In this document: positions 4,477 through 50,169 of the stretch, piece by piece | How positions within the stretch are numbered: the first letter of the stretch is position 1 | Layout of the letters: the number at the start of each line of letters is the position of its first letter | The notes under the pieces: generated by a model | What the model was told of the DNA's origin: nothing | Database searches by the model: none | The model's input: only the letters and a program-made list of their open reading frames with translations | From: Clostridia bacterium | GTDB taxonomy: Bacteria; Bacillota; Clostridia; TANB77; CAG-465 | NCBI GenBank assembly: GCA_900772475.1 | Contig: CAAHEI010000105.1 | Span: forward strand, 13,393-77,392 | Length of the DNA stretch: 64,000 bases | Reading direction: 5' to 3' | Made by a program: the position numbers and the translations under genes

Positions 4477-4692
4477 TTATTTCTTATATGTTTTAATTTT
4501 ATCTCTTTTTGTAATACAAAATTTGATATAGTCTAAATATTCATTATCCAGTGTTTCAAGCCACATTTCTAGGTCTGAATAAAAATTACTTTCTGTAAAT
4601 GTTATTTCTACGCTGTCGATTTCTCCATTTTTATATTTTGTTGTTTTAACTTCGTTCAATTTCCCATTTGACCTTATAATTAATTTTTTCAT
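4477..4692 (-). CDS. hypothetical protein
   Basis: ORF track. Co-directional array. Confidence 0.55.
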   Translation of the reverse strand: MKKLIIRSNGKLNEVKTTKYKNGEIDSVEITFTESNFYSDLEMWLETLDNEYLDYIKFCITKRDKIKTYKK

Positions 4693-7675: not shown

Positions 7676-7822
7676 TTATTCGTAATTTTTTGATAGTCCA
7701 GCAGTAAAAAAGTAAATATCATTTAATAATATGTTTTTAAAGCCTGTTTCGAGTGTTGATTGCTTTATTTTGTTATAAAATTGTATTGCTTCGAATAAGT
7801 CCATATTTTGAAAAATTTTCAT
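7676..7822 (-). CDS. hypothetical 48-aa protein (below the ORF-track cutoff)
   Basis: Hand translation: MKIFQNMDLFEAIQFYNKIKQSTLETGFKNILLNDIYFFTAGLSKNYE. A perfect AAGGAGG RBS lies upstream. Confidence 0.55.
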   Translation of the reverse strand: MKIFQNMDLFEAIQFYNKIKQSTLETGFKNILLNDIYFFTAGLSKNYE

Positions 7823-7883
7823 TGCTTTTGCCTCCTTTTGTTAAATTTTGCGTGGGTTTTTTCTTGCGTGCTGTTATATAGTT

Positions 7884-8135
7884 TTAAAGTATTATAAATG
7901 CTAGTTCGTCAAACATTTTGGGGATCTTGCGTTCTTTTTCTTTGTAGTATTTTTTTAACTCTTCTTCTCTTTGATTGATAAATTTTAAAGCCGTTTCGTT
8001 GTCTTTGTATTCTTCTCTTCTCTCTTGCAAGTTTTTGAAGTCGTCCAGCTTTTGCTGTTCTAGTTTTTCAAGTGTTATATCTTCCAACTCCTTTATTTTT
8101 GCAAAATTTTTTTCGTACTCTTCTGCGTTTGTCAT
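7884..8135 (-). CDS. hypothetical coiled-coil protein
   Basis: ORF track. AAAGGAG RBS upstream. Confidence 0.6.
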   Translation of the reverse strand: MTNAEEYEKNFAKIKELEDITLEKLEQQKLDDFKNLQERREEYKDNETALKFINQREEELKKYYKEKERKIPKMFDELAFIIL

Positions 8136-8243
8136 TTTTTTAAACTCCTTTAAAATAAAATTTTTATACCGCCGTGGCGGTTGGTGGTAAGTTGTTTTTT
8201 TTGAGTGCTTGCCAAACTCTAAAAATTTAGTTTTTTATATGTT

Positions 8244-8396
8244 TTAATCTAATTCCTTTGAATAATTTTTCAACGCTGTTATAAGATTCCAGCCGTTGCA
8301 GTTTTGCAACTTTTGGAAGAGTTGCAGATCTCCCAAAGTGCAAAGCTCTATTTTTTTAGTTAATTTTTTAAATTCATTTAATTCGTTTATGTTCAT
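8244..8396 (-). CDS. hypothetical 50-aa protein (below the ORF-track cutoff)
   Basis: Hand translation: MNINELNEFKKLTKKIELCTLGDLQLFQKLQNCNGWNLITALKNYSKELD. AAAGGAAC upstream. A decayed copy of its 5' end sits at 9583-9610. Confidence 0.5.
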   Translation of the reverse strand: MNINELNEFKKLTKKIELCTLGDLQLFQKLQNCNGWNLITALKNYSKELD

Positions 8397-8429
8397 TTTT
8401 TTATGTTCCTTTTTTTATTTGTTATTATT

Positions 8430-8771
8430 TTAGTTATTGCAGTAAATACATTTTTTTGTGTTCCAGTCAAAGATTGATATTTGTTTTAGTTCCTTGCCAA
8501 GTTTTAAAGCCTTAGAAAGTGAATCAATTTTAATTGATATATCAATGTAAGCTTTTCCTTCTTCTATCCAGATTCCACAAAATTCGTTTTGTTTGATTGT
8601 GTTTAGTATGTTGTTGATTGCGTCCAGTACTTCGTTTGTGTTGTTTATGTTTAATGTGTAGCAGTCTTTCTTGCTGACTTGATAGCCTTTTTTGAATTCT
8701 ACAGATTCGCCGTTTTTATTTAGTGTTGCTCCGTTGTTTTTTATTATGTTTTTTAATGTTTGTAACTTCAT
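8430..8771 (-). CDS. hypothetical protein, first gene of the leftward arm
   Basis: ORF track. AAGGGAG RBS. Lies directly downstream of the sigma70-like promoter at 8804-8832. Confidence 0.65.
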   Translation of the reverse strand: MKLQTLKNIIKNNGATLNKNGESVEFKKGYQVSKKDCYTLNINNTNEVLDAINNILNTIKQNEFCGIWIEEGKAYIDISIKIDSLSKALKLGKELKQISIFDWNTKKCIYCNN

Positions 8772-10832: not shown

Positions 10833-11751
10833 TGAAGATTATGAAAATGTTTTAGACGGCGACATTTTGAATGTTTTACTCAAGGATAGAACGACTGGCA
10901 AAAATATAATTTGGGCAACGGACAATTATGGATTTAGTCCAGGTGAAGAAATAAAAATTGAAAACTTGCCTTTGATAAAACCTAGATTGGAGAAAAGCAA
11001 GGAAGAACAGCAGAAAAGGACAAAGGGTAAAGCTGAAGTATTTACTCCATCGTGGATATGCAATGATATGAATAATAACTTGACAGAAGAGTGGTTTGGT
11101 AGAAAAAATGTTTTTAATGTATCTACCGGACGGGGATGGAAAACAAACAACGAGAAAATTTCTTTTCCTTGTGTAGAGGGTAAAAATTGGCTAGACTATG
11201 TTCGCTCCACAGTGCTTGAAATAACTTGTGGGGAAGGGCCATTTCTTGTAAGCAGATATGATACAGTCACCGGGGAATACATAGACCCTTTTGATAGAAT
11301 CGGTTTGTTAGATAGAAAAATCCGAGTGGTGAATGAAAATATTGATTTTGGTAGTGATGGTTGGTTCGAGATAATTCTTGAAGCATATAAGGCTACCTAT
11401 GGTTATGAATTTCAAGGCGATAATTTATTCCTTGCGAGAAAAAATTTATTGCTAACTTTTATAGACAATTATCAATTAAGAATAAACAAATATGTAGACA
11501 AAGAAAAACTTTTACAAGTTGCAGAAATAATTTCGTGGAATTTGTGGCAAATGGACGGGTTAAAATATGTGATACCTAATAGTTGTAAAACCACAAATCA
11601 AGGACAAATATCTCTTTTTACTAGTGATTCTGAGAAAGAATGTCCTGGATGTAAAGAAAATAATATTTTAAAACATACTGGAATCTATTGTAAAATAAAA
11701 GATTGGAAAACAAATTCTGTTGGAAGATTTGTAGATATTGTGAAAAAATAA
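10825..11751 (+). CDS. gamma-class (Eco57I/TaqI-type) methyltransferase-like protein lacking a visible NPPY motif
   Basis: AEVFTPSWICNDM looks like motif X (FTP), VLEITCGEGPFLV like motif I, and YGYEFQGDNLFLARKNL like motif II/III. I found no (N/D/S)PP(Y/F). ATG 10825 overlaps the upstream stop (ATGCATAA). Confidence 0.4.
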   Translation: MHNEDYENVLDGDILNVLLKDRTTGKNIIWATDNYGFSPGEEIKIENLPLIKPRLEKSKEEQQKRTKGKAEVFTPSWICNDMNNNLTEEWFGRKNVFNVSTGRGWKTNNEKISFPCVEGKNWLDYVRSTVLEITCGEGPFLVSRYDTVTGEYIDPFDRIGLLDRKIRVVNENIDFGSDGWFEIILEAYKATYGYEFQGDNLFLARKNLLLTFIDNYQLRINKYVDKEKLLQVAEIISWNLWQMDGLKYVIPNSCKTTNQGQISLFTSDSEKECPGCKENNILKHTGIYCKIKDWKTNSVGRFVDIVKK

Positions 11752-12816: not shown

Positions 12817-12903
12817 GTGGGCATGGCGGAATCGGCAGACGCACAGGACTTAAAATCCTGAGAGAAAAATCTCGTGAGGGTTCAAATCCCTCTGCCCGCA
12901 CCA
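12817..12903 (+). tRNA. tRNA-Leu (anticodon UAA), CCA encoded
   Basis: Hand-folded cloverleaf. Acceptor GTGGGCA/TGCCCGC (one G-U pair), 3-bp D stem, anticodon stem CAGGA/TCCTG with loop CTTAAAA, 15-nt variable arm (class II), T arm GAGGG-TTCAAAT-CCCTC, then A-CCA. Confidence 0.9.
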
Positions 12904-34339: not shown

Positions 34340-36079
34340 GTGGTGCAAATGAGAGATAATTTAACCAATGGCAAAATAATTGCTTTTATAACTGCTCAAT
34401 GCAGAAAAATTGTAAGACAACAATCTTCAGGTATTTTGGATATAAAATGGGATAGTGCTACTCATTCTTTGGTATTTACTCTAACAAATGGTAAAACTAT
34501 TTCTGTTTCTATTGCTGCAAGTGCAAATGGTATTTCATATTCAAATGCCATTTCTAAACTTGATGCTAATGATGTTCAAAGTGCGATAGATGAAGTTTTG
34601 ACAAAATTAAAAAAAGAAATTAGTGATTTAGGTAAAAAGACTGCACATTTAGATGAGCAAAACAAATTTACCGAATTAAATAGTTTTGATGCTGAAACTA
34701 CATTTAATAATGCAATTACAGTAAATGGGGCTGATGTTGGAATAGATAATGGTGTTGTTTTAATTACAGATAATACAAATGGGAAAGACATCGTAACTAA
34801 ATATTCTGCTGATGAAATAGTAATTAGTGCAAACGGGGATAAAAACCCAAAAACATTAACATTGCCATTGGAAGATGGAACACTGGTTACAAGTGTGAAA
34901 TTTGATATGAAACACTCAAAATTTACAAATAGAGATAATGGCAACGGAAAAGAGGATACTTGGTTGTCTACAGATACGGATACAACTCAATCTATATCAA
35001 ATGAAAATGGAGTAACAAATACTTCAGTCTCTGTGCAGAAGAACTTCATAGAACTTACATCGTTGGAGCTTTCGGACCAAACAGTGCAAAGCAATATCAC
35101 TTTGACTTCTGATGGTATAGCATTGAAATCTAGCAAAAACCATACTAGTGAAGGAAAAGAAATTAAATTAGAAATAACTTCCGATGGTGCACAAATAAAT
35201 AGTAAAAGTATTGCGACATCTGATGATTTGAGCAAAAAAATAGATCGTATAACTACAACTGGTGGTTATACAAGGGTTTATGGAATAAATAAAGATGGTT
35301 CTGCGACTATTGTAACTATTGATGATGAGCTTGATAACTCTAAAATAAATTTAGTTGATAATAAAACCATAAAAAATGCACTAGATAAAAAGCAGGATAA
35401 ACTAACTGCAGGTAGCAGAATAGTAATTGATAATAACAACACTATAAAATCGGTAACTAATTATATTGACCTAACGGGCGAAGATGGCTCTCTTGATGAT
35501 GCACAAATGGTAATGCTTCAAGGTGATGATATGGTCGTATTAAGACGCTCTGGAGTTTTGTATAGACTAAACAGTAAGCCTATAAATGGAAGTGGTGATT
35601 ATGTTTTTTATAGTGACTATTATAGCACTGGTGAAATACCAGGCTTAACTCCATACATGATAATTTTAAAACAAGATAAAACATGGAAATGGCAATCATT
35701 AGATAAAAACTCTCAAGGTGCAGTTATGTATGTTGCACAACAATTAAGTCAAGAACAAAAAGACCAAGCGTGTAAAAATATTGGAGTAAATCAAGCATTT
35801 GAAGATTCCGATGGGGTTACAATCATTAGAAATGGTAACATTGTAATGCAAAGCAAAACTTTTACAATGCAAGGAAATAGTGAAAAAGCATTTTCATTCC
35901 CTGTAAGCTATGATGCTGATAAAAAACCAATGTGTTGGTGCAATAGTTCGGCTGATGGAATGAGTTCAAATAATAGTTCTGCAGTAATATCTTGTGATAG
36001 CAACTCAATGGTAGTTAGAATTTGTGGTGTAGAATCGACTGTGACATTTTTTGCTCAAGGTTGGGTTACTAAAAAATAA
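34340..36079 (+). CDS. fibre-like structural protein (579 aa)
   Basis: ORF track, with a possible alternative start at ATG 34349. The composition is Ser/Thr/Asn/Gly-rich and beta-type. Confidence 0.6.
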   Translation: MVQMRDNLTNGKIIAFITAQCRKIVRQQSSGILDIKWDSATHSLVFTLTNGKTISVSIAASANGISYSNAISKLDANDVQSAIDEVLTKLKKEISDLGKKTAHLDEQNKFTELNSFDAETTFNNAITVNGADVGIDNGVVLITDNTNGKDIVTKYSADEIVISANGDKNPKTLTLPLEDGTLVTSVKFDMKHSKFTNRDNGNGKEDTWLSTDTDTTQSISNENGVTNTSVSVQKNFIELTSLELSDQTVQSNITLTSDGIALKSSKNHTSEGKEIKLEITSDGAQINSKSIATSDDLSKKIDRITTTGGYTRVYGINKDGSATIVTIDDELDNSKINLVDNKTIKNALDKKQDKLTAGSRIVIDNNNTIKSVTNYIDLTGEDGSLDDAQMVMLQGDDMVVLRRSGVLYRLNSKPINGSGDYVFYSDYYSTGEIPGLTPYMIILKQDKTWKWQSLDKNSQGAVMYVAQQLSQEQKDQACKNIGVNQAFEDSDGVTIIRNGNIVMQSKTFTMQGNSEKAFSFPVSYDADKKPMCWCNSSADGMSSNNSSAVISCDSNSMVVRICGVESTVTFFAQGWVTKK

Positions 36080-36107
36080 TATTATAGAAAAAGTGAGATT
36101 TTAGAAT

Positions 36108-37262: not shown

Positions 37263-39911
37263 ATGGCTGATTTAAGTATTAAGTTAAAAACTGAAGCGGA
37301 TGCTCAATCATTCGCAAAATCGGTAAATGATTTATCAAAAAAAGTCCCTCCCGTAAAGATAAAAATTTCATCATCTGTGGGTGATGGTATTGGCTCGTTA
37401 GAAAAAAAACTTGGTCCATTGTCTTCTCGAATAGCGGATACCTATGAAAGATTGGCATCATTAAGAACCGAGGGTTCTTTAACTGAAAAATCTTTTTTTG
37501 ACTTATCTGCTCAAGTAGATAATGTTAGAGAAAGTTTAGAAAAGGGAAATATATCGTTTGCAAAAGGTTCGTCTATCTTAGATAAAATAACAGATTCTGC
37601 CAATGGTACAAAAACTGGATTTTTTAATTTGTCTCAAGGACTAATTGATGCTGCATCGAAATTTACTACATGGTATTTATTGGCTGGAGTTATTACTGGC
37701 ATAATAAATGCGCTAAAACAAATGGTAGCAGAAGTTATTTCTTTAGATGCTGCAATGGTTGAATTAAATAAAGTATTCGATGCTAGTAATATAGAACTCA
37801 ATAGAGTAAAAGATAGAGCATTTGAATTAGCCGATGGACTAGGCACTACTGGTAAGGCAGTAATTGAGGCGACAACTGAATTTAAACGAATGGGTTATAC
37901 CATTAACGAATCTTTAGATTTAGCTAAAGTTGCAACAACAATGACAAATGTTGCGGAAGGGATAACGGACACTGGTGAGGCAGCGAATATATTAACTTCA
38001 ATCCTAAAAGGTACTGGCGTTTCATCGGAATATGCCATGTCATTATTGGATAGGCTCAATGAAGTTTCAAATAATAATGCAATAAGTTTTGATGCTTTAG
38101 CAAATATGTTGCAGTCAACTGCTTCTACAATGAATATTCTTGGGAATAACACCGACGAAACAATTGGTATGTTGACGGGTGCCTATGCAGTTATTCAAGA
38201 TGAGCGTGTTGGAAAAGCGCTTACGACTATCGGTCTAAGAATTTCGGGATTAAATGAAGATTTAGAAACTGAAGCAGGGCTTGCAAATGATGTATCTAAA
38301 TCGTTGCAAAAATATGCAGGAATAAATGTTTTTGATGAACAAACAGGCCAAATAAAAAGCACATACGAGATAATGAAAGAACTATCTACAGTATGGGATG
38401 ACTTAAATAAAAATGAACAGGCGGTGTTATTGAATAAACTTGCTGGTAAAAATAGGGCAGACGTTGCGGCTGCGCTATTGGCAAACTGGGAAAATGTCGA
38501 TGAGGCAATTGAAGACGCTGCCAATAGTTTGGGGTCTGCAACAAAGGAGAACGAGAAACACTTAAATAGTATTAAAGGAAAACTTGAAGCTATAAAAAAT
38601 CTCTTTCAGGAAACTGCAAAAGAAATGATACCCCAAGAAGTTATTAAATCCACATTGGATTTGGTAAAGGCATTGATGGAAGTTGTGAAACCTATTGGAA
38701 CTGCAGTGGGTCTAATGATAAAGGCCAGCGGTATTTCACAGCAATTTAAGTCGCTTGCAAATGCACTTTCTCTTATTGGCAAGTATTTGCAAGGAATTTA
38801 TAAATTTTGGCAGCCAGTTATAGATGTAATATATACTCTTCAGGAAAGCATATTTACTATAACAAATTCAATTAGCGACGAGTTATTTGAAGGATTAGAA
38901 TTGTTAGCAAAAAAAATCATGGAATGGTTTGGTCCAGTTATCAATATATTTAATAAAGTAACAGGATGGATATCAAATACTACTTCTAAGGCTGTAGAGC
39001 GGATAAAAGGCTGGTTCGGAGAAGTTGATAAAGATGCCAAAGACCTTGCGGAAACTTTTAATAAGTCTGAAAAGGATGTAAATGATTATGACAAGGCATT
39101 ATTCAATTTAAAAAAAACTTTGGGTGAACTAAGGGTTGAAAACGAAGAGACTTTAGAAAATTTAAAAAAACAAAATAAAGAAATTGAAAATCAAAAAGAA
39201 CTTAATGATAAATTGTTAGCAGTTGAAAAAGCCAGACAAGAATTAGCAGATGCTAAAAATAAAAGAGTTCGTGTATTTCGTGCTGGTATTGGCTTTACTT
39301 ATGAATCTGATACATCTGAAGTGCAGGCTGCACAAGAAAATTTGCAATCTGCTATTGATGAATTAAGCGAGTTTAAATATGATTTGATACTTTCAAGGGC
39401 AGAAGAATTTGTTGAAAAATTTGCTGAGATATTATCTGGTGATGATATGACTGAAGGTTGGCAAGAATTGTTTGATAATTTTGCTGATTTGATGGGCACA
39501 GAATTTGAATATTTTATAACAAATGCTAAGGAATCGATAAAAGAATTTAATAAAACGGTGAAAGAAAACTCAGTACTTAAAGACCCAAAAGGGACAATTT
39601 CATTAAACACAGATGAGCATAATGCAAGTGGAGATATCAATTTTAAAGGTGGACCCACTTGGGTTGGTGAACACGGCCCGGAAATTGTAAATCTGCCACA
39701 GGGTAGTGAAATATTGAGCCATAATAAATCAATTAGGCTAACAAGTTTAGTAAACAATCCAAACAAATTTCTTACAGGATCCAGTAAAAATATAACATTA
39801 CAGTTTAACGGGCCTTTAGAGTTTCCTAATGTAACATCCGCAGAGGATGCAAGTGGGTTTATAGATGCTGTAGTATCTGTAGGAAATTCAAGAGTTCCAA
39901 AATATTCTTAA
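37263..39911 (+). CDS. tail tape measure protein
   Basis: 882 aa and alpha-helical or coiled-coil rich. The core is TP901-type (AMVELNKVFD...LGTTGKAVIEATTEFKRMGYT...NVAEGITDTGEAANILTS). The C-terminal GGPTWVGEHGPEIVNLPQGSEI motif is typical of tape measure proteins. Confidence 0.85.
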   Translation: MADLSIKLKTEADAQSFAKSVNDLSKKVPPVKIKISSSVGDGIGSLEKKLGPLSSRIADTYERLASLRTEGSLTEKSFFDLSAQVDNVRESLEKGNISFAKGSSILDKITDSANGTKTGFFNLSQGLIDAASKFTTWYLLAGVITGIINALKQMVAEVISLDAAMVELNKVFDASNIELNRVKDRAFELADGLGTTGKAVIEATTEFKRMGYTINESLDLAKVATTMTNVAEGITDTGEAANILTSILKGTGVSSEYAMSLLDRLNEVSNNNAISFDALANMLQSTASTMNILGNNTDETIGMLTGAYAVIQDERVGKALTTIGLRISGLNEDLETEAGLANDVSKSLQKYAGINVFDEQTGQIKSTYEIMKELSTVWDDLNKNEQAVLLNKLAGKNRADVAAALLANWENVDEAIEDAANSLGSATKENEKHLNSIKGKLEAIKNLFQETAKEMIPQEVIKSTLDLVKALMEVVKPIGTAVGLMIKASGISQQFKSLANALSLIGKYLQGIYKFWQPVIDVIYTLQESIFTITNSISDELFEGLELLAKKIMEWFGPVINIFNKVTGWISNTTSKAVERIKGWFGEVDKDAKDLAETFNKSEKDVNDYDKALFNLKKTLGELRVENEETLENLKKQNKEIENQKELNDKLLAVEKARQELADAKNKRVRVFRAGIGFTYESDTSEVQAAQENLQSAIDELSEFKYDLILSRAEEFVEKFAEILSGDDMTEGWQELFDNFADLMGTEFEYFITNAKESIKEFNKTVKENSVLKDPKGTISLNTDEHNASGDINFKGGPTWVGEHGPEIVNLPQGSEILSHNKSIRLTSLVNNPNKFLTGSSKNITLQFNGPLEFPNVTSAEDASGFIDAVVSVGNSRVPKYS

Positions 39912-46928: not shown

Positions 46929-48833
46929 ATGGCAGGTAGACCAGAATATAAATCAAAATGGACGGGTCAAGAAATTGATAATGCTGTTGGAATGTTGATT
47001 GAAAATGGGGTAAAACCTCTTACGACTGGAGATATTGTACAAACGACTGGAAATAGTCCTACAAAAGTCATGAGTCAAGTAGCCGTTACAAATGCATTAG
47101 AAAATGTGGACCCTAGCGAAAAAATAAATGAAGCGATAGAAGAACATAATTCTAGTGAGCAGGCCCATCCATACATTCAAGACTTAATAAGTAATAAACC
47201 AAATGCATTGAATGATAGAAGCGACTCACAGAAAGACACATATTCGGCTAACTATATAAACAACTCTTTTGCTCCGATAACTTTTGTGTCAAATCTTTAT
47301 GCATCAAAGGTTAGTGACAATACTGCAGATTTGGTTGATAAGGCACCGGTTTTAAGTGCATCCAATACTTTGGTTTCTACTGCTACAACAAATACTGATT
47401 ATAATTGGTCGTCTCCAGATTTCACATTTACTCGTGATTTAGAAGTTTCGACAACCTTAACAGCACAAAATTCGTTTGCACTTAATTTAACATTTCAAAC
47501 AAGTAGAAATGCAACCATATCGTGGGGGGCGAAAATTAAAGTTTCGCAAGATAATGGACAAAGTTGGACATACATCTCGGATAATCAAGCCTATGGAGCG
47601 ATTTTCTATGAAACTGGAATAGGTAACACGGCAATATTTAATGTGTTTACTAACACAATTCAAGGTACAGTTATTTATCCTATAGGTACTTTATTAGCAA
47701 TAGAAATATATAAAAAACAAACCAGTGCAACGGCTTTAACAACGACTGTTTATTGTGGAGTAGAAGTTGATAATGCAGGGATTTATACTTATGCCCAATT
47801 CAATTTTACCAATGTAAATATTGGCACAGACCAATTGGAAGATGGTTCGGTAACAAAACAAAAACTGGAACAAAGTGTACAAGACACAATCAATAATGTT
47901 GCAAATAAGGTTGACAAACAAAGCATATTCGCTATTACGAAAAACACTATGTCTGTGAATAATGAAAATGGCGAATTTAGCATTCAAGGTAATTCTGTTC
48001 CATATAAAAGTTCAGTAAGAACGACTTTTAGTGGGGAACAAGTGAAAATTTCTAGTGCGGTGAACGATGGGTCATTGTCTTCCAATGTAACAATTTCTCC
48101 CACAAGCGTTGATGTCAAAGTCAATTCCAAAGATATTGAACAACTTAAGGAATCTCATGTAAAAATAAATGAAAAAGGAATTTATTATAATGATAAAAAC
48201 ATTTCTAATATTCCAATACAATCAATAAATGAAACAGAATTGGGCAGACAAATCAATCTCGCCACAGACCTTGAAGTTGGAAAGTTATATTTATTGAGTG
48301 GGTTAGACCCTACTGTAATTAGGGGAACATATAAAAATAAAAACGTTTACTTTTATAGTGGTAAACCCTATTTCCCTAACTATTATACTTATCAAGTATT
48401 AAAGCAATTGGATAATCAACTTATATTTGAAAATTGCAACTTAACTCCAGTGGTTGGTGGTGCAGGATACAACTTAAATGCATCTTATTATCAGTATGCT
48501 AGAGTGACAATAGACACAACTACTGGGTTAATTACAAATATTGAACCAGTTATAATGTTGAAAGGAGTTAATGGTGGGAATCTTTCGGCTAATTGTGTAG
48601 GTATATATGCTCCAACAACATCAGGTACACAAGGACAAATACTGCAAAGCAATGGAAGTGACTCAGCACCCACTTGGATTGATAAAGTTGATGAAGTAAA
48701 AGTTGATGGCAAAACTATCAACAAAAATGCCTCAAATGAATTGCAAGCAATAGCAGTAATAGATACAACTGATGGTGAAATTATAACTTCAAATCAATTA
48801 AGAAAAGCAATAACAATCCGGAGGTATCTTTGA
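46929..48833 (+). CDS. tail fibre protein (634 aa; zero-frame product ending at TGA 48831-48833)
   Basis: AAAGGAG RBS. Ser/Thr/Asn-rich beta-type composition. It ends in the prfB-like cassette CGG AGG TAT CTT TGA. Confidence 0.65.
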   Translation: MAGRPEYKSKWTGQEIDNAVGMLIENGVKPLTTGDIVQTTGNSPTKVMSQVAVTNALENVDPSEKINEAIEEHNSSEQAHPYIQDLISNKPNALNDRSDSQKDTYSANYINNSFAPITFVSNLYASKVSDNTADLVDKAPVLSASNTLVSTATTNTDYNWSSPDFTFTRDLEVSTTLTAQNSFALNLTFQTSRNATISWGAKIKVSQDNGQSWTYISDNQAYGAIFYETGIGNTAIFNVFTNTIQGTVIYPIGTLLAIEIYKKQTSATALTTTVYCGVEVDNAGIYTYAQFNFTNVNIGTDQLEDGSVTKQKLEQSVQDTINNVANKVDKQSIFAITKNTMSVNNENGEFSIQGNSVPYKSSVRTTFSGEQVKISSAVNDGSLSSNVTISPTSVDVKVNSKDIEQLKESHVKINEKGIYYNDKNISNIPIQSINETELGRQINLATDLEVGKLYLLSGLDPTVIRGTYKNKNVYFYSGKPYFPNYYTYQVLKQLDNQLIFENCNLTPVVGGAGYNLNASYYQYARVTIDTTTGLITNIEPVIMLKGVNGGNLSANCVGIYAPTTSGTQGQILQSNGSDSAPTWIDKVDEVKVDGKTINKNASNELQAIAVIDTTDGEIITSNQLRKAITIRRYL

Positions 48834-48834
48834 A
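48820..48834 (+). promoter_or_regulatory. candidate +1 programmed ribosomal frameshift site (GGAGG-TAT-CTT-TGA-A)
   Basis: An SD-like GGAGG, the 3-nt spacer TAT, a slippery CTT, then a TGA stop. This is the same architecture as the bacterial prfB (RF2) site AGGGGG-UAU-CUU-UGA. The +1 frame is open from 48814 into the LRR ORF. Confidence 0.55.
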
Positions 48835-50169
48835 GCAGGTGTTTATAATCACGAAACGCATGAACTCATAGCAACTTGGGCAGATTTAGTGACAGATGAT
48901 GTAAATGACACTACAAAACCATTTTATCAAAGTATAAGTGGTGGGTTAATAACTATAATGCCAATGGATGGCTACACTGATACAACTTATGATGGCTGCG
49001 ACTTGTATTTAGATGATTATGTGCAAAGTCTTTATTATGCATCGGGTGGCATAACTTTTAAATTTCCATTTAATGTTGCAAATGTTATTTTGTCAAATGG
49101 GCTTAAACATAATGCCCCAGTCCTTGATTTTAATGATACAGAGCAAATTACGACAACTTACAATAATGCCCAATACATTGGTAGCGATTCAAATCCATAT
49201 TTGATGCTATATAAAATACCAGATAATGTAACTTCATTGGAAATAAATGAGAAGACAAAAATTATAAATCAATTCTATACAGATGGTTTTACTGGCGCTC
49301 AATTAAGTTCAATCACTATACCAAATTCAATTCAAGATATACCTTCACAACTTACAATGATGCCGCTTTTGAAAAATGAAACTAATTTACACGGAAATGC
49401 TTACTATGCAGGAAATTCGGAAAATCCATACATTGTGCTTATGGAAGCAAAAGATACAACTATAACTGAATGTGAAATAAATCCAAATACAAAATTTATC
49501 GGAGTATATGCATTTGATGGATGCACTTCACTAACAAATATAAATTTGCCTAATTCTGTAACTAATATAGAAGAAATTGCATTTAGAAAGTGTGGGTTAA
49601 CCTCCATAAATATACCAAATAGTGTAGTAAAAATTGATGTACAAGCATTTGGACAAACTCAATTAACAACAGTTACATTACCAAATAGTATAGAATTTTT
49701 AGGACGTGGAGTATTTAATATATGCAAAAGTTTAACAACTGTAAATATACCTGAAAAAATAACATTTATTCCAGATAATTTTTGTTATTTTTGTAATTCT
49801 TTGACAAATGTTACTACTCATGATAATATAGAAATAATAGGAAGAACTGCATTTTATAAGGCAATATTTACAAGTTTTGATTTTGGTAAAAAACTCAAGT
49901 GCATTAAAAGAAGTGCTTTCTCAAATTGTGCGAACTTGAATAATGTGGTTTTGCCAAATACAATTAAAAGAATTGAAACGTCTGCTTTCGCTAGTTGTGC
50001 TTCATTGACAAAATTGACTATTCTTGCAACAACGCCACCAAATCTTGTAAATATAAATGCTTTTCCAACAAATCTTGCAACAATTTATGTACCAAAAGGT
50101 AGTTTGGATTCGTACAAAACAGCGACAAACTGGGCTTCATTCGCAGATAAATTTGTTGAGTTGAGTTAA
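48832..50169 (+). CDS. BspA-type leucine-rich-repeat (LRR_5) receptor-binding domain ORF, probably expressed as a +1 frameshift extension of the fibre
   Basis: LRR_5 repeats (IPNSVTNIEEIAFRKCGLTSINIPNSVVKIDVQAFGQTQLTTVTLPNSIEFLGRGVFNICKSLTTVNIP...). The frame is open upstream to 48814 and has no ATG or TTG before the SD-less GTG 48889 chosen by the ORF track. Confidence 0.6.
   Translation, partial: EAGVYNHETHELIATWADLVTDDVNDTTKPFYQSISGGLITIMPMDGYTDTTYDGCDLYLDDYVQSLYYASGGITFKFPFNVANVILSNGLKHNAPVLDFNDTEQITTTYNNAQYIGSDSNPYLMLYKIPDNVTSLEINEKTKIINQFYTDGFTGAQLSSITIPNSIQDIPSQLTMMPLLKNETNLHGNAYYAGNSENPYIVLMEAKDTTITECEINPNTKFIGVYAFDGCTSLTNINLPNSVTNIEEIAFRKCGLTSINIPNSVVKIDVQAFGQTQLTTVTLPNSIEFLGRGVFNICKSLTTVNIPEKITFIPDNFCYFCNSLTNVTTHDNIEIIGRTAFYKAIFTSFDFGKKLKCIKRSAFSNCANLNNVVLPNTIKRIETSAFASCASLTKLTILATTPPNLVNINAFPTNLATIYVPKGSLDSYKTATNWASFADKFVELS

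Follow-up and report, generated by a model that had tools for sequence, protein, structure and literature searches.

We analysed a gene junction in a 64,000-nucleotide (nt) stretch of contig CAAHEI010000105.1 (assembly GCA_900772475.1, Clostridia bacterium), hereafter the window, which is a segment of a phage genome with ~30% GC. At this junction the open reading frame (ORF) of a fibre-like distal tail protein ends at a TGA, and an ORF encoding leucine-rich repeats (LRR) of the BspA type continues in the +1 frame. The two meet in a short cassette that resembles the +1 programmed frameshift site of prfB, the gene for release factor 2 (RF2), and they are probably linked by a frameshift of that type. 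The features of the junction are the following.

46929-48833, plus strand: frame 0 ORF of the fibre-like distal tail protein, 634 amino acids (aa), ending ...AITIRRYL-stop; named from its position and its modular relatives.
48813-48834, plus strand: conserved cassette block ACAATCCGGAGGTATCTTTGAA, the left edge of the mobile cassette-plus-LRR module.
48820-48824, plus strand: GGAGG, a putative internal Shine-Dalgarno (SD)-like stimulator, encoded by the Arg-Arg codons CGG AGG.
48825-48827, plus strand: TAT, the 3-nt spacer and E-site Tyr codon, identical to the prfB spacer and the same in four real prfB sites.
48828-48831, plus strand: CTT_T, the candidate shift site, with proposed re-pairing of the P-site tRNA-Leu from CUU to UUU.
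48831-48833, plus strand: in-frame TGA, the stop of the fibre ORF; the next base (48834) is A.
48830-48871, plus strand: mini-ORF of 13 codons in the third frame, from TTG 48830 to TAG 48869-48871, which may be incidental to the cassette or may underlie a coupling mechanism considered below.
48832-48888, plus strand: 19 codons of the +1 frame (EAGVYNHETHELIATWADL) preceding the annotated GTG, under coding constraint in the +1 frame.
48889-48891, plus strand: GTG used as a start by ORF finders and gene callers; it lacks an SD and is most likely an internal Val codon.
48832-50169, plus strand: the +1-frame ORF, 445 codons plus TAA, with a nearly invariant N-terminal half and a BspA-type LRR C-terminal half; the proposed extension of the fibre.
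49450-50154, plus strand: LRR_5 (BspA-like) repeats, with matches to solved structures over residues ~207-441.

An earlier sequence-only reading of this stretch had described the cassette and its reading frames, and its description of the junction stood up to inspection. The fibre ORF (46929-48833, 634 aa) does end in ACA ATC CGG AGG TAT CTT TGA. The +1 frame is closed by TAA at 48811-48813, opens at 48814 and runs, as had been stated, without interruption into the LRR ORF as far as its next stop, TAA 50167-50169. Between 48814 and 48888 this frame contains neither the ATG nor the TTG whose absence had been reported, nor a GTG, the only near-cognate start codons there being ATC 48826 and ATA 48868. 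No SD-like sequence was found in the 20 nt before GTG 48889, in agreement with the earlier description, or in the 20 nt upstream of ATA 48868. The parts of the cassette also have the order and spacing that had been given for them, namely GGAGG, 3 nt (TAT), CTT_T and GA.

The composition of the window makes this arrangement stand out. The string GGAGGNNNCTTTGA has a single copy in the 64 kb and was absent from all 100 dinucleotide-preserving shuffles, CTT_TGA terminates no other gene in the window, and TGA is its least used stop codon (6 of 63). The least used Arg codon is CGG (8 of 17,276 codons, compared with 306 for AGA), and the spelling of Arg-Arg as CGG-AGG despite this rarity points to selection for GGAGG at the nucleotide level. 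GAA, the first codon of the +1 frame, is the most abundant codon (57 per thousand), so that rapid decoding after a slip would be favoured. We detected no downstream RNA stimulator (folding was no better than that of shuffles, z = +0.85), no terminator between the two ORFs, no promoter between them above background and no Rfam element at the junction, as expected for an RF2-type site, which requires none of these. Nearly all genes of the phage, including coupled genes that overlap or adjoin one another, begin with an ATG located 5-9 nt after a strong SD (GGAGG, GGGGG or AAGGAG), and the small LRR_5 and DUF285 genes nearby each have their own SD and ATG. This usage would fit a host with strong SD/anti-SD usage, and it makes the SD-less GTG 48889 an anomaly.

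In prfB, an SD-like tract (consensus AGGGGG) lies 3 nt before CTTT, which is followed by TGA and a conserved C (PMC12421855). Stimulation of the +1 shift requires the 3-nt spacing between SD and shift codon, and among RF2-type shift sites CUU_U is conserved and has the highest efficiency (PMC5009743). The phage site resembles prfB in its SD-like tract, 3-nt UAU spacer, CUU_U and in-frame UGA, and the mechanism expected of it would be the same, P-site slippage competing with RF2 termination; it differs in having GGAGG rather than the consensus AGGGGG and A rather than the conserved C after UGA. A search of 185,579 species genomes for ATHCGGAGGTATCTTTGAA returned 11 matches, four of which are genuine prfB genes, from a gammaproteobacterium, a member of the Pelagibacteraceae, a Nitrospirae bacterium and a deltaproteobacterium (L077, L078, L083 and L085), and thus from four phyla. 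All four have the exact 19-mer ATH CGG AGG TAT CTT TGA A, and in each an ORF of ~25 codons ending IRRYL-stop is followed by a +1 product of ~340 aa with PCRF and RF-1 domains (E < 1e-43). These prfB sites too carry GGAGG rather than AGGGGG and A rather than C, their +1 products begin with Glu, and the phage junction is identical to them over the 19-mer AT(H)CGGAGGTATCTTTGAA and in the peptide IRRYL-stop. C after the stop is therefore a frequent and not an obligatory feature of prfB sites, which weakens the mismatch of the phage cassette to the consensus. Since the downstream product has LRR_5 and not PCRF/RF-1 domains, the phage gene is not prfB and there is no autoregulatory loop. The prfB site is at codon ~26, whereas the phage site closes a structural gene of 634 codons, where its likely purpose is to provide two isoforms at a set ratio.

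Relatives of the locus were drawn from ENA and Logan assemblies. Together with the window, ten other contigs provided 11 junctions, which represent 9 haplotypes from independent assemblies. In every one of them the sequence is ...ACA AT[C/T/A] CGG AGG TAT CTT TGA A..., and the LRR ORF follows in the +1 frame. The sequence-only reading had named an alignment of related loci as a test of its proposal, and the outcome was in its favour: the cassette was present in 11/11 loci with this LRR ORF, and none of these loci had two conventional genes without the cassette. Megablast and blastn of the locus against annotated phage records gave no match, and no relatives were recovered from IMG/VR, where the phage family is absent, with either of the two proteins or with a 20-mer. 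The 15-mer CGGAGGTATCTTTGA had 59 matches in IMG/VR, almost all of them plain in-frame coding for G-G-I-F-D/E and none a fibre/LRR junction, and a search of JGI metagenomes with the LRR protein yielded two distant LRR matches only.

The LRR ORFs are 93-97% identical across these contigs, and they follow three types of upstream protein. Type A, a protein of 634 aa, is found in the window and in four other contigs (L002-4 and L075). Type B (L001, L072 and L074) has 471 aa, of which the N-terminal 418 are 80-84% identical to type A, while the last ~120-160 aa of the two types share only 26-29% identity. Type C (L070, L071 and L073) has 450 aa, has no detectable similarity to A or B and lies in an upstream genomic neighbourhood unrelated to theirs. 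The C-terminus is A-[I/C]-T-I-R-R-Y-L-stop in all three types. The blastn homology to the window begins at 48813 in both L001 and L070, and identity to L001 rises from ~35% to ~93% at the first base of the cassette block (48813). Because both foreign homologies begin at this base, the cassette is part of the LRR module and is not tied to any one fibre. No start codon in the +1 frame is conserved: type A is closed six codons upstream without a start, and types B and C have differing, fortuitous SD-less GTG or ATG-ATG codons within non-homologous sequence. In relatives with another gene after the fibre (L064 and L066), the fibre ends with an ordinary TAA, which is followed by an SD and an ATG.

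From these boundaries we propose that recombination set the module behind at least three upstream genes, always in frame with ...TIRRYL-stop. The phage genomes that carry it are 84-92 kb long and were sampled in many independent runs. L070, from a phage that otherwise differs, also shares a second block with the window (7813-8528 versus window 35389-36105; 0.7 kb, 93% identical), which lies inside the ORF at 34340-36079 and is further evidence for mosaic exchange between these phage lineages.

The variation among the haplotypes distinguishes between reading frames. The sole variable site in the cassette is the third base of the Ile codon (ATC/ATT/ATA), where changes are silent in frame 0 and would give S/F/Y in the +1 frame. 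Over 48832-48888, the 9 haplotypes record 7 substitution events. Five of these fall at third positions of the +1 frame and are all silent (GGT/GGG, GTT/GTA/GTC, CTC/CTT and TTA/TTG), two fall at first positions and are conservative (GCA/ACA, A/T; CTT/ATT, L/I), and second positions have none. Of random single-base changes here, 21% are expected to leave the +1-frame product unaltered, such that at least 5 silent events among 7 have P = 0.006. Over the next 546 nt (182 codons, to relative position +603), variation at third, first and second positions is 13:4:3. This substitution pattern indicates that translation is in frame 0 as far as the Ile codon and in the +1 frame from the codon after the shift site. 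The TAG of the third-frame mini-ORF is conserved in all haplotypes, and the changes in its peptide are radical (V/G, F/Y/S, N/K and S/L).

The identification of the downstream ORF as an LRR protein, made in the sequence-only reading, was supported by a match to Pfam PF13306, LRR_5 (score 155.2 bits, gathering cut-off 27.7, E = 1e-45), and by the BspA-like structures 4fs7, 4gt6, 6mlx (TpLRR) and 4cp6 (PcpA), which are its structural relatives. A single-sequence AlphaFold2 (AF2) model of the +1 product was a beta-rich solenoid with a confidence score (pLDDT) of 60-90 over the LRR region. The further suggestion that EAGVYNHETHELIATWADLV resembles an authentic N-terminus of BspA-type proteins was not supported, since residues 1-50 are covered by the protein's own cluster alone: when 1.84 billion cluster representatives were searched exhaustively with HMMER, all other matches were limited to the LRR repeats, from ~residue 50. 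The same search found no ATG-initiated homologue of the N-terminal part. Compared with BspA-type LRR surface proteins such as TpLRR and PcpA, the phage ORF is alike in its LRR_5 C-terminal half, whereas it has no signal peptide, anchor or start codon of its own, and homologues of its first ~50 residues are confined to its own cluster.

The 90% cluster of the LRR protein has 11 members with called lengths of 403, 426, 455 and 459 aa, and one of them, the NCBI third-party annotation (TPA) record DAT76210.1, begins at an internal Met (MPMDGY...). All four of these public start sites are probably wrong. A comparison of the LRR ORFs of the window and L001 revealed 32 silent and 33 replacement codon differences. 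The replacements cluster in the C-terminal repeats (~residues 225-445; window 49500-50166) and residues 25-180 are invariant, a distribution that fits a variable binding surface carried on a conserved N-terminal part.

We consider it likely that an RF2-type +1 programmed frameshift links the fibre-like gene to the LRR ORF. A ribosome translating the fibre ORF would come to a position in which CUU occupies the P site and UGA the A site, with the anti-SD of its 16S rRNA paired to GGAGG three nt upstream. If RF2 acts slowly on UGA, the peptidyl-tRNA-Leu could slip from CUU to UUU in competition with termination, after which GAA would be decoded and 445 codons translated. Most ribosomes would terminate and release the 634-aa fibre, and a fraction would produce a fibre of 1079 aa that ends in a BspA-type LRR domain, so that two receptor-binding forms would arise from one message. 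The isoform ratio could track host RF2. The predicted fusion of 634 + 445 = 1079 aa, the size given in the sequence-only reading, would have a mass of ~118.5 kDa compared with 69.3 kDa for the short form, and its junction peptide would be ...ITIRRYLEAGVYNHETHELIATWADLVTDDVNDTTK (tryptic form YLEAGVYNHETHELIATWADLVTDDVNDTTK). The 1079-aa product was found in no database, and no public gene call equals it.

Several observations weigh against a frameshift. The UGA C context of the RF2-type cassette, which makes for poor termination, is absent, the base at 48834 being A in 11/11 junctions; termination may therefore compete more strongly and efficiency may be low. Comparative depth is shallow, in that the LRR copies are all >90% identical and the key statistic is one of 7 events; the 16 core bases of the cassette are invariant, yet this is not significant at such a divergence. 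Residues 1-207 had a pLDDT below 50 in the single-sequence AF2 model, and the 19 leader residues could not be placed in a fold. The 1.84 billion representatives included no natural in-frame fusion of a fibre and this LRR protein. Finally, the GGAGG is followed after 5 nt by TTG 48830, which is ideal SD-to-start spacing in the wrong frame.

This last point is the foundation of the best of the competing explanations, in which the LRR protein is a separate product of 426 aa starting at GTG 48889 by translational coupling. Ribosomes would be directed by GGAGG to the TTG 48830 mini-ORF, terminate at TAG 48869-48871 and reinitiate, and the likeness to prfB would be a by-product of an SD combined with an overlapping TTGA stop/start. 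In favour of this model, stop/start overlaps of the form TTGA are common, and coupling is a common role of an SD that lies close to the end of the gene before (PMC5009743). Every haplotype also retains the mini-ORF with its TAG, always 17 nt ahead of the GTG, and gene callers picked GTG 48889 in the type A contigs. The same TTG is built into every CTT_TGA prfB site. Against coupling, GTG 48889 has no SD of its own in a phage in which nearly all other genes, coupled ones included, start with ATG. The 19 codons before the GTG show the silent-site bias of the +1 frame (P = 0.006), while changes in the frame of the mini-ORF are radical. Coupling would also leave unexplained the TAT-CTT and the 3-nt spacing, which match real prfB over 19 nt, and it offers no reason why unrelated upstream ORFs should join in frame so as to end at this TGA. 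We therefore regard coupling as unlikely.

A second possibility is that the LRR protein starts at a non-canonical codon of the +1 frame, such as AUC 48826 after termination at UGA, to give M-F-E-A-G-V-Y.... ATC 48826 is the only near-cognate +1 start before the 19 constrained codons and lies beside both SD and stop, and its use would account for the +1 constraint from 48832 on. However, the SD ends 1 nt before this ATC, compared with 5-9 nt in the genes of this phage, AUC starts are extremely rare in bacteria, and the exact prfB spacing and the CTT_TGA would have no explanation, making such a start very improbable.

We give just as little credence to the idea that the LRR ORF is an unexpressed, start-less remnant of a recent transfer and that the cassette is there by chance or by hitch-hiking. 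Part of the conservation could indeed be recency, given that the copies are all >90% identical, and the databases hold neither an in-frame fusion nor an ATG-initiated homologue of the N-terminal part. Nevertheless, the 445 codons are open in 9/9 haplotypes with variation mostly at third positions (13:4:3), the module is fixed behind three upstream genes in phage genomes of 84-92 kb, and the motif is not expected by chance. Stop-codon readthrough or reassignment of TGA was rejected because frame 0 meets a TAA four codons on and long, closely spaced ORFs of the window use TGA as a stop, transcriptional slippage because no homopolymer run is longer than TTT, and assembly error because the identical junction occurs in 11 independent assemblies.

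The label of tail fibre given to the upstream protein in the sequence-only reading is supported by its position and by modular fibre-like relatives, whereas no Pfam, PHROG or PDB match was found for it; we therefore refer to it as fibre-like. The locus is within the tail module, ~7 kb (six ORFs) past the tape-measure gene at 37263-39911, and the upstream gene is distal to the tape-measure and baseplate-like genes. The fibre-like relatives (P0003-P0030) share 50-84% identity over the N-terminal ~330-420 aa, and their C-terminal parts have been exchanged, with many unrelated tails among them. In four of them (P0003-5 and P0008) a DUF285 repeat domain is joined in frame to the fibre N-terminal part, showing that a fibre with a C-terminal repeat domain is a viable architecture. 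A search of the fibre C-terminal domain against a large protein database gave five weak matches through an internal module, and none ended in TIRRYL. This internal module, ...GTEEKPINLATDLEVGKLY...IYAPTTSGTxGQILQSNG...PTWID, is also present in the small proteins P0191-P0195.

The nearest annotated relatives of the terminase belong to phages of Bacillota (SPbeta-like, Lactococcus, Enterococcus and Clostridium phages). The phage also encodes a tRNA-Leu (window 12817-12903, plus strand) with the anticodon TAA, for UUA/UUG, which are the Leu codons used most in the window, and not for the CUU shift codon.

Two further candidate sites were observed in other phages. In unrelated phages with a GC content of 0.45-0.54, a gene for a beta-class DNA methyltransferase is split at AGG GGG TAT CTT TGA (C/G). 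The IMG/VR contigs concerned are the following.

L089, L096, L105, L106, L111, L113, L121, L123 and L124: methyltransferase gene split at the cassette, which in L113 lies at ~11407-11421.

The frame 0 part of the methyltransferase ends ...RGYL-stop and in L113 begins MLKTGLYNMDC...DPPYG. The +1 part comprises ~160 aa, begins D..DIR.WD(I/V)APD..YF.EL.RVS.NQIIWGGNYF and has no Met before ~residue 56, and the fused L113 product matches Pfam N6_N4_Mtase (E = 1e-11). Since several diverged members keep the cassette, a second phage gene family seems to have a conserved +1 frameshift of the RF2 type. Most members have a short frame 0 ORF without the DPPY part, which may mean that there is another frame break upstream.

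The other candidate is at 4669-4683 of L024 (= L174 ~4597-4611), IMGVR_UViG_3300009157_000025, where a 536-aa ORF belonging to no Pfam family ends ...ADILRRYL-stop. The stop context, CGG AGG TAT CTT TGA C, has the canonical C and is followed by a +1 ORF of 117 codons with ATG candidates that lack an obvious SD. No relatives of this ORF were found in IMG/VR, and from its sequence it is a possible independent phage example.

Extension of structural proteins by a +1 shift at a stop codon has precedents in phages. Shifty stops extend Tsh and Cps of Listeria PSA (PMC5009743), and they also give rise to the tail extensions gp17.1/gp17.1* of SPP1 and MTP-TpeX of the lactococcal 936-group phage PhiC0139; for PhiC0139 there is support from Western blots, and its extension binds carbohydrate (PMC4759559). 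In these cases, all from Bacillota hosts, ribosomes shift +1 at the final sense codon of a tail gene, as is predicted for the phage junction, which shares with them a start-less downstream ORF that adds an adhesion-type domain; short and long forms are made in those phages, and both forms are proposed here from the sequence. In contrast, the PSA, SPP1 and 936 sites have CCC (Pro) before the stop (CCC.UAG or CCC.UGA) or a pseudoknot, with no SD stimulator described, whereas the phage site has CTT (Leu). Those sites extend a major tail or capsid protein, while the junction described here would extend a distal fibre-like protein and has a full RF2-type cassette that forms a mobile module together with the domain it appends. 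The -1 frameshift of lambda G/GT is likewise a case of conserved recoding in a tail cluster with N-terminally identical products at a fixed ratio, which is a prediction for the present phage; it has the opposite direction, a heptanucleotide slippery site and products that are chaperones and not receptor-binding parts of the virion, and is located upstream of the tape-measure gene. The logic of extending a tail protein is known; its combination with a full RF2-type cassette at the end of a fibre-like gene, in one mobile unit that includes the cargo domain, would be new. In the literature that we searched, no phage gene was reported to have an RF2-type cassette.

If ribosomes shift at this junction, a complete RF2-type cassette (SD, 3 nt, CUU_UGA) would be in use outside prfB; according to the authors of PRFect, every CUU-stop +1 case in RECODE is prfB (PMC10885494). 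The decoration of virions by +1 shifty stops would then extend from tail-tube proteins to a distal fibre-like protein. The locus also poses an annotation problem, with one LRR ORF having been given four called starts, including that of the NCBI TPA record. If the LRR domain binds a receptor, a single gene would provide two receptor-binding forms, in a ratio that could depend on host RF2 activity. More tentatively, the cassette and LRR ORF may form a self-contained, recombination-mobile module that could be grafted onto any fibre gene to give an LRR-tipped second isoform, with the short:long ratio reporting the termination capacity of the host (RF2 level or growth state), since the cassette copies the RF2-sensing site of the host itself, and RF2-type cassettes may be commoner in phages than has been catalogued. 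The sharp left boundary common to all copies of the module suggests that recoding signals can travel with the domains they express, which is relevant to host-range engineering.

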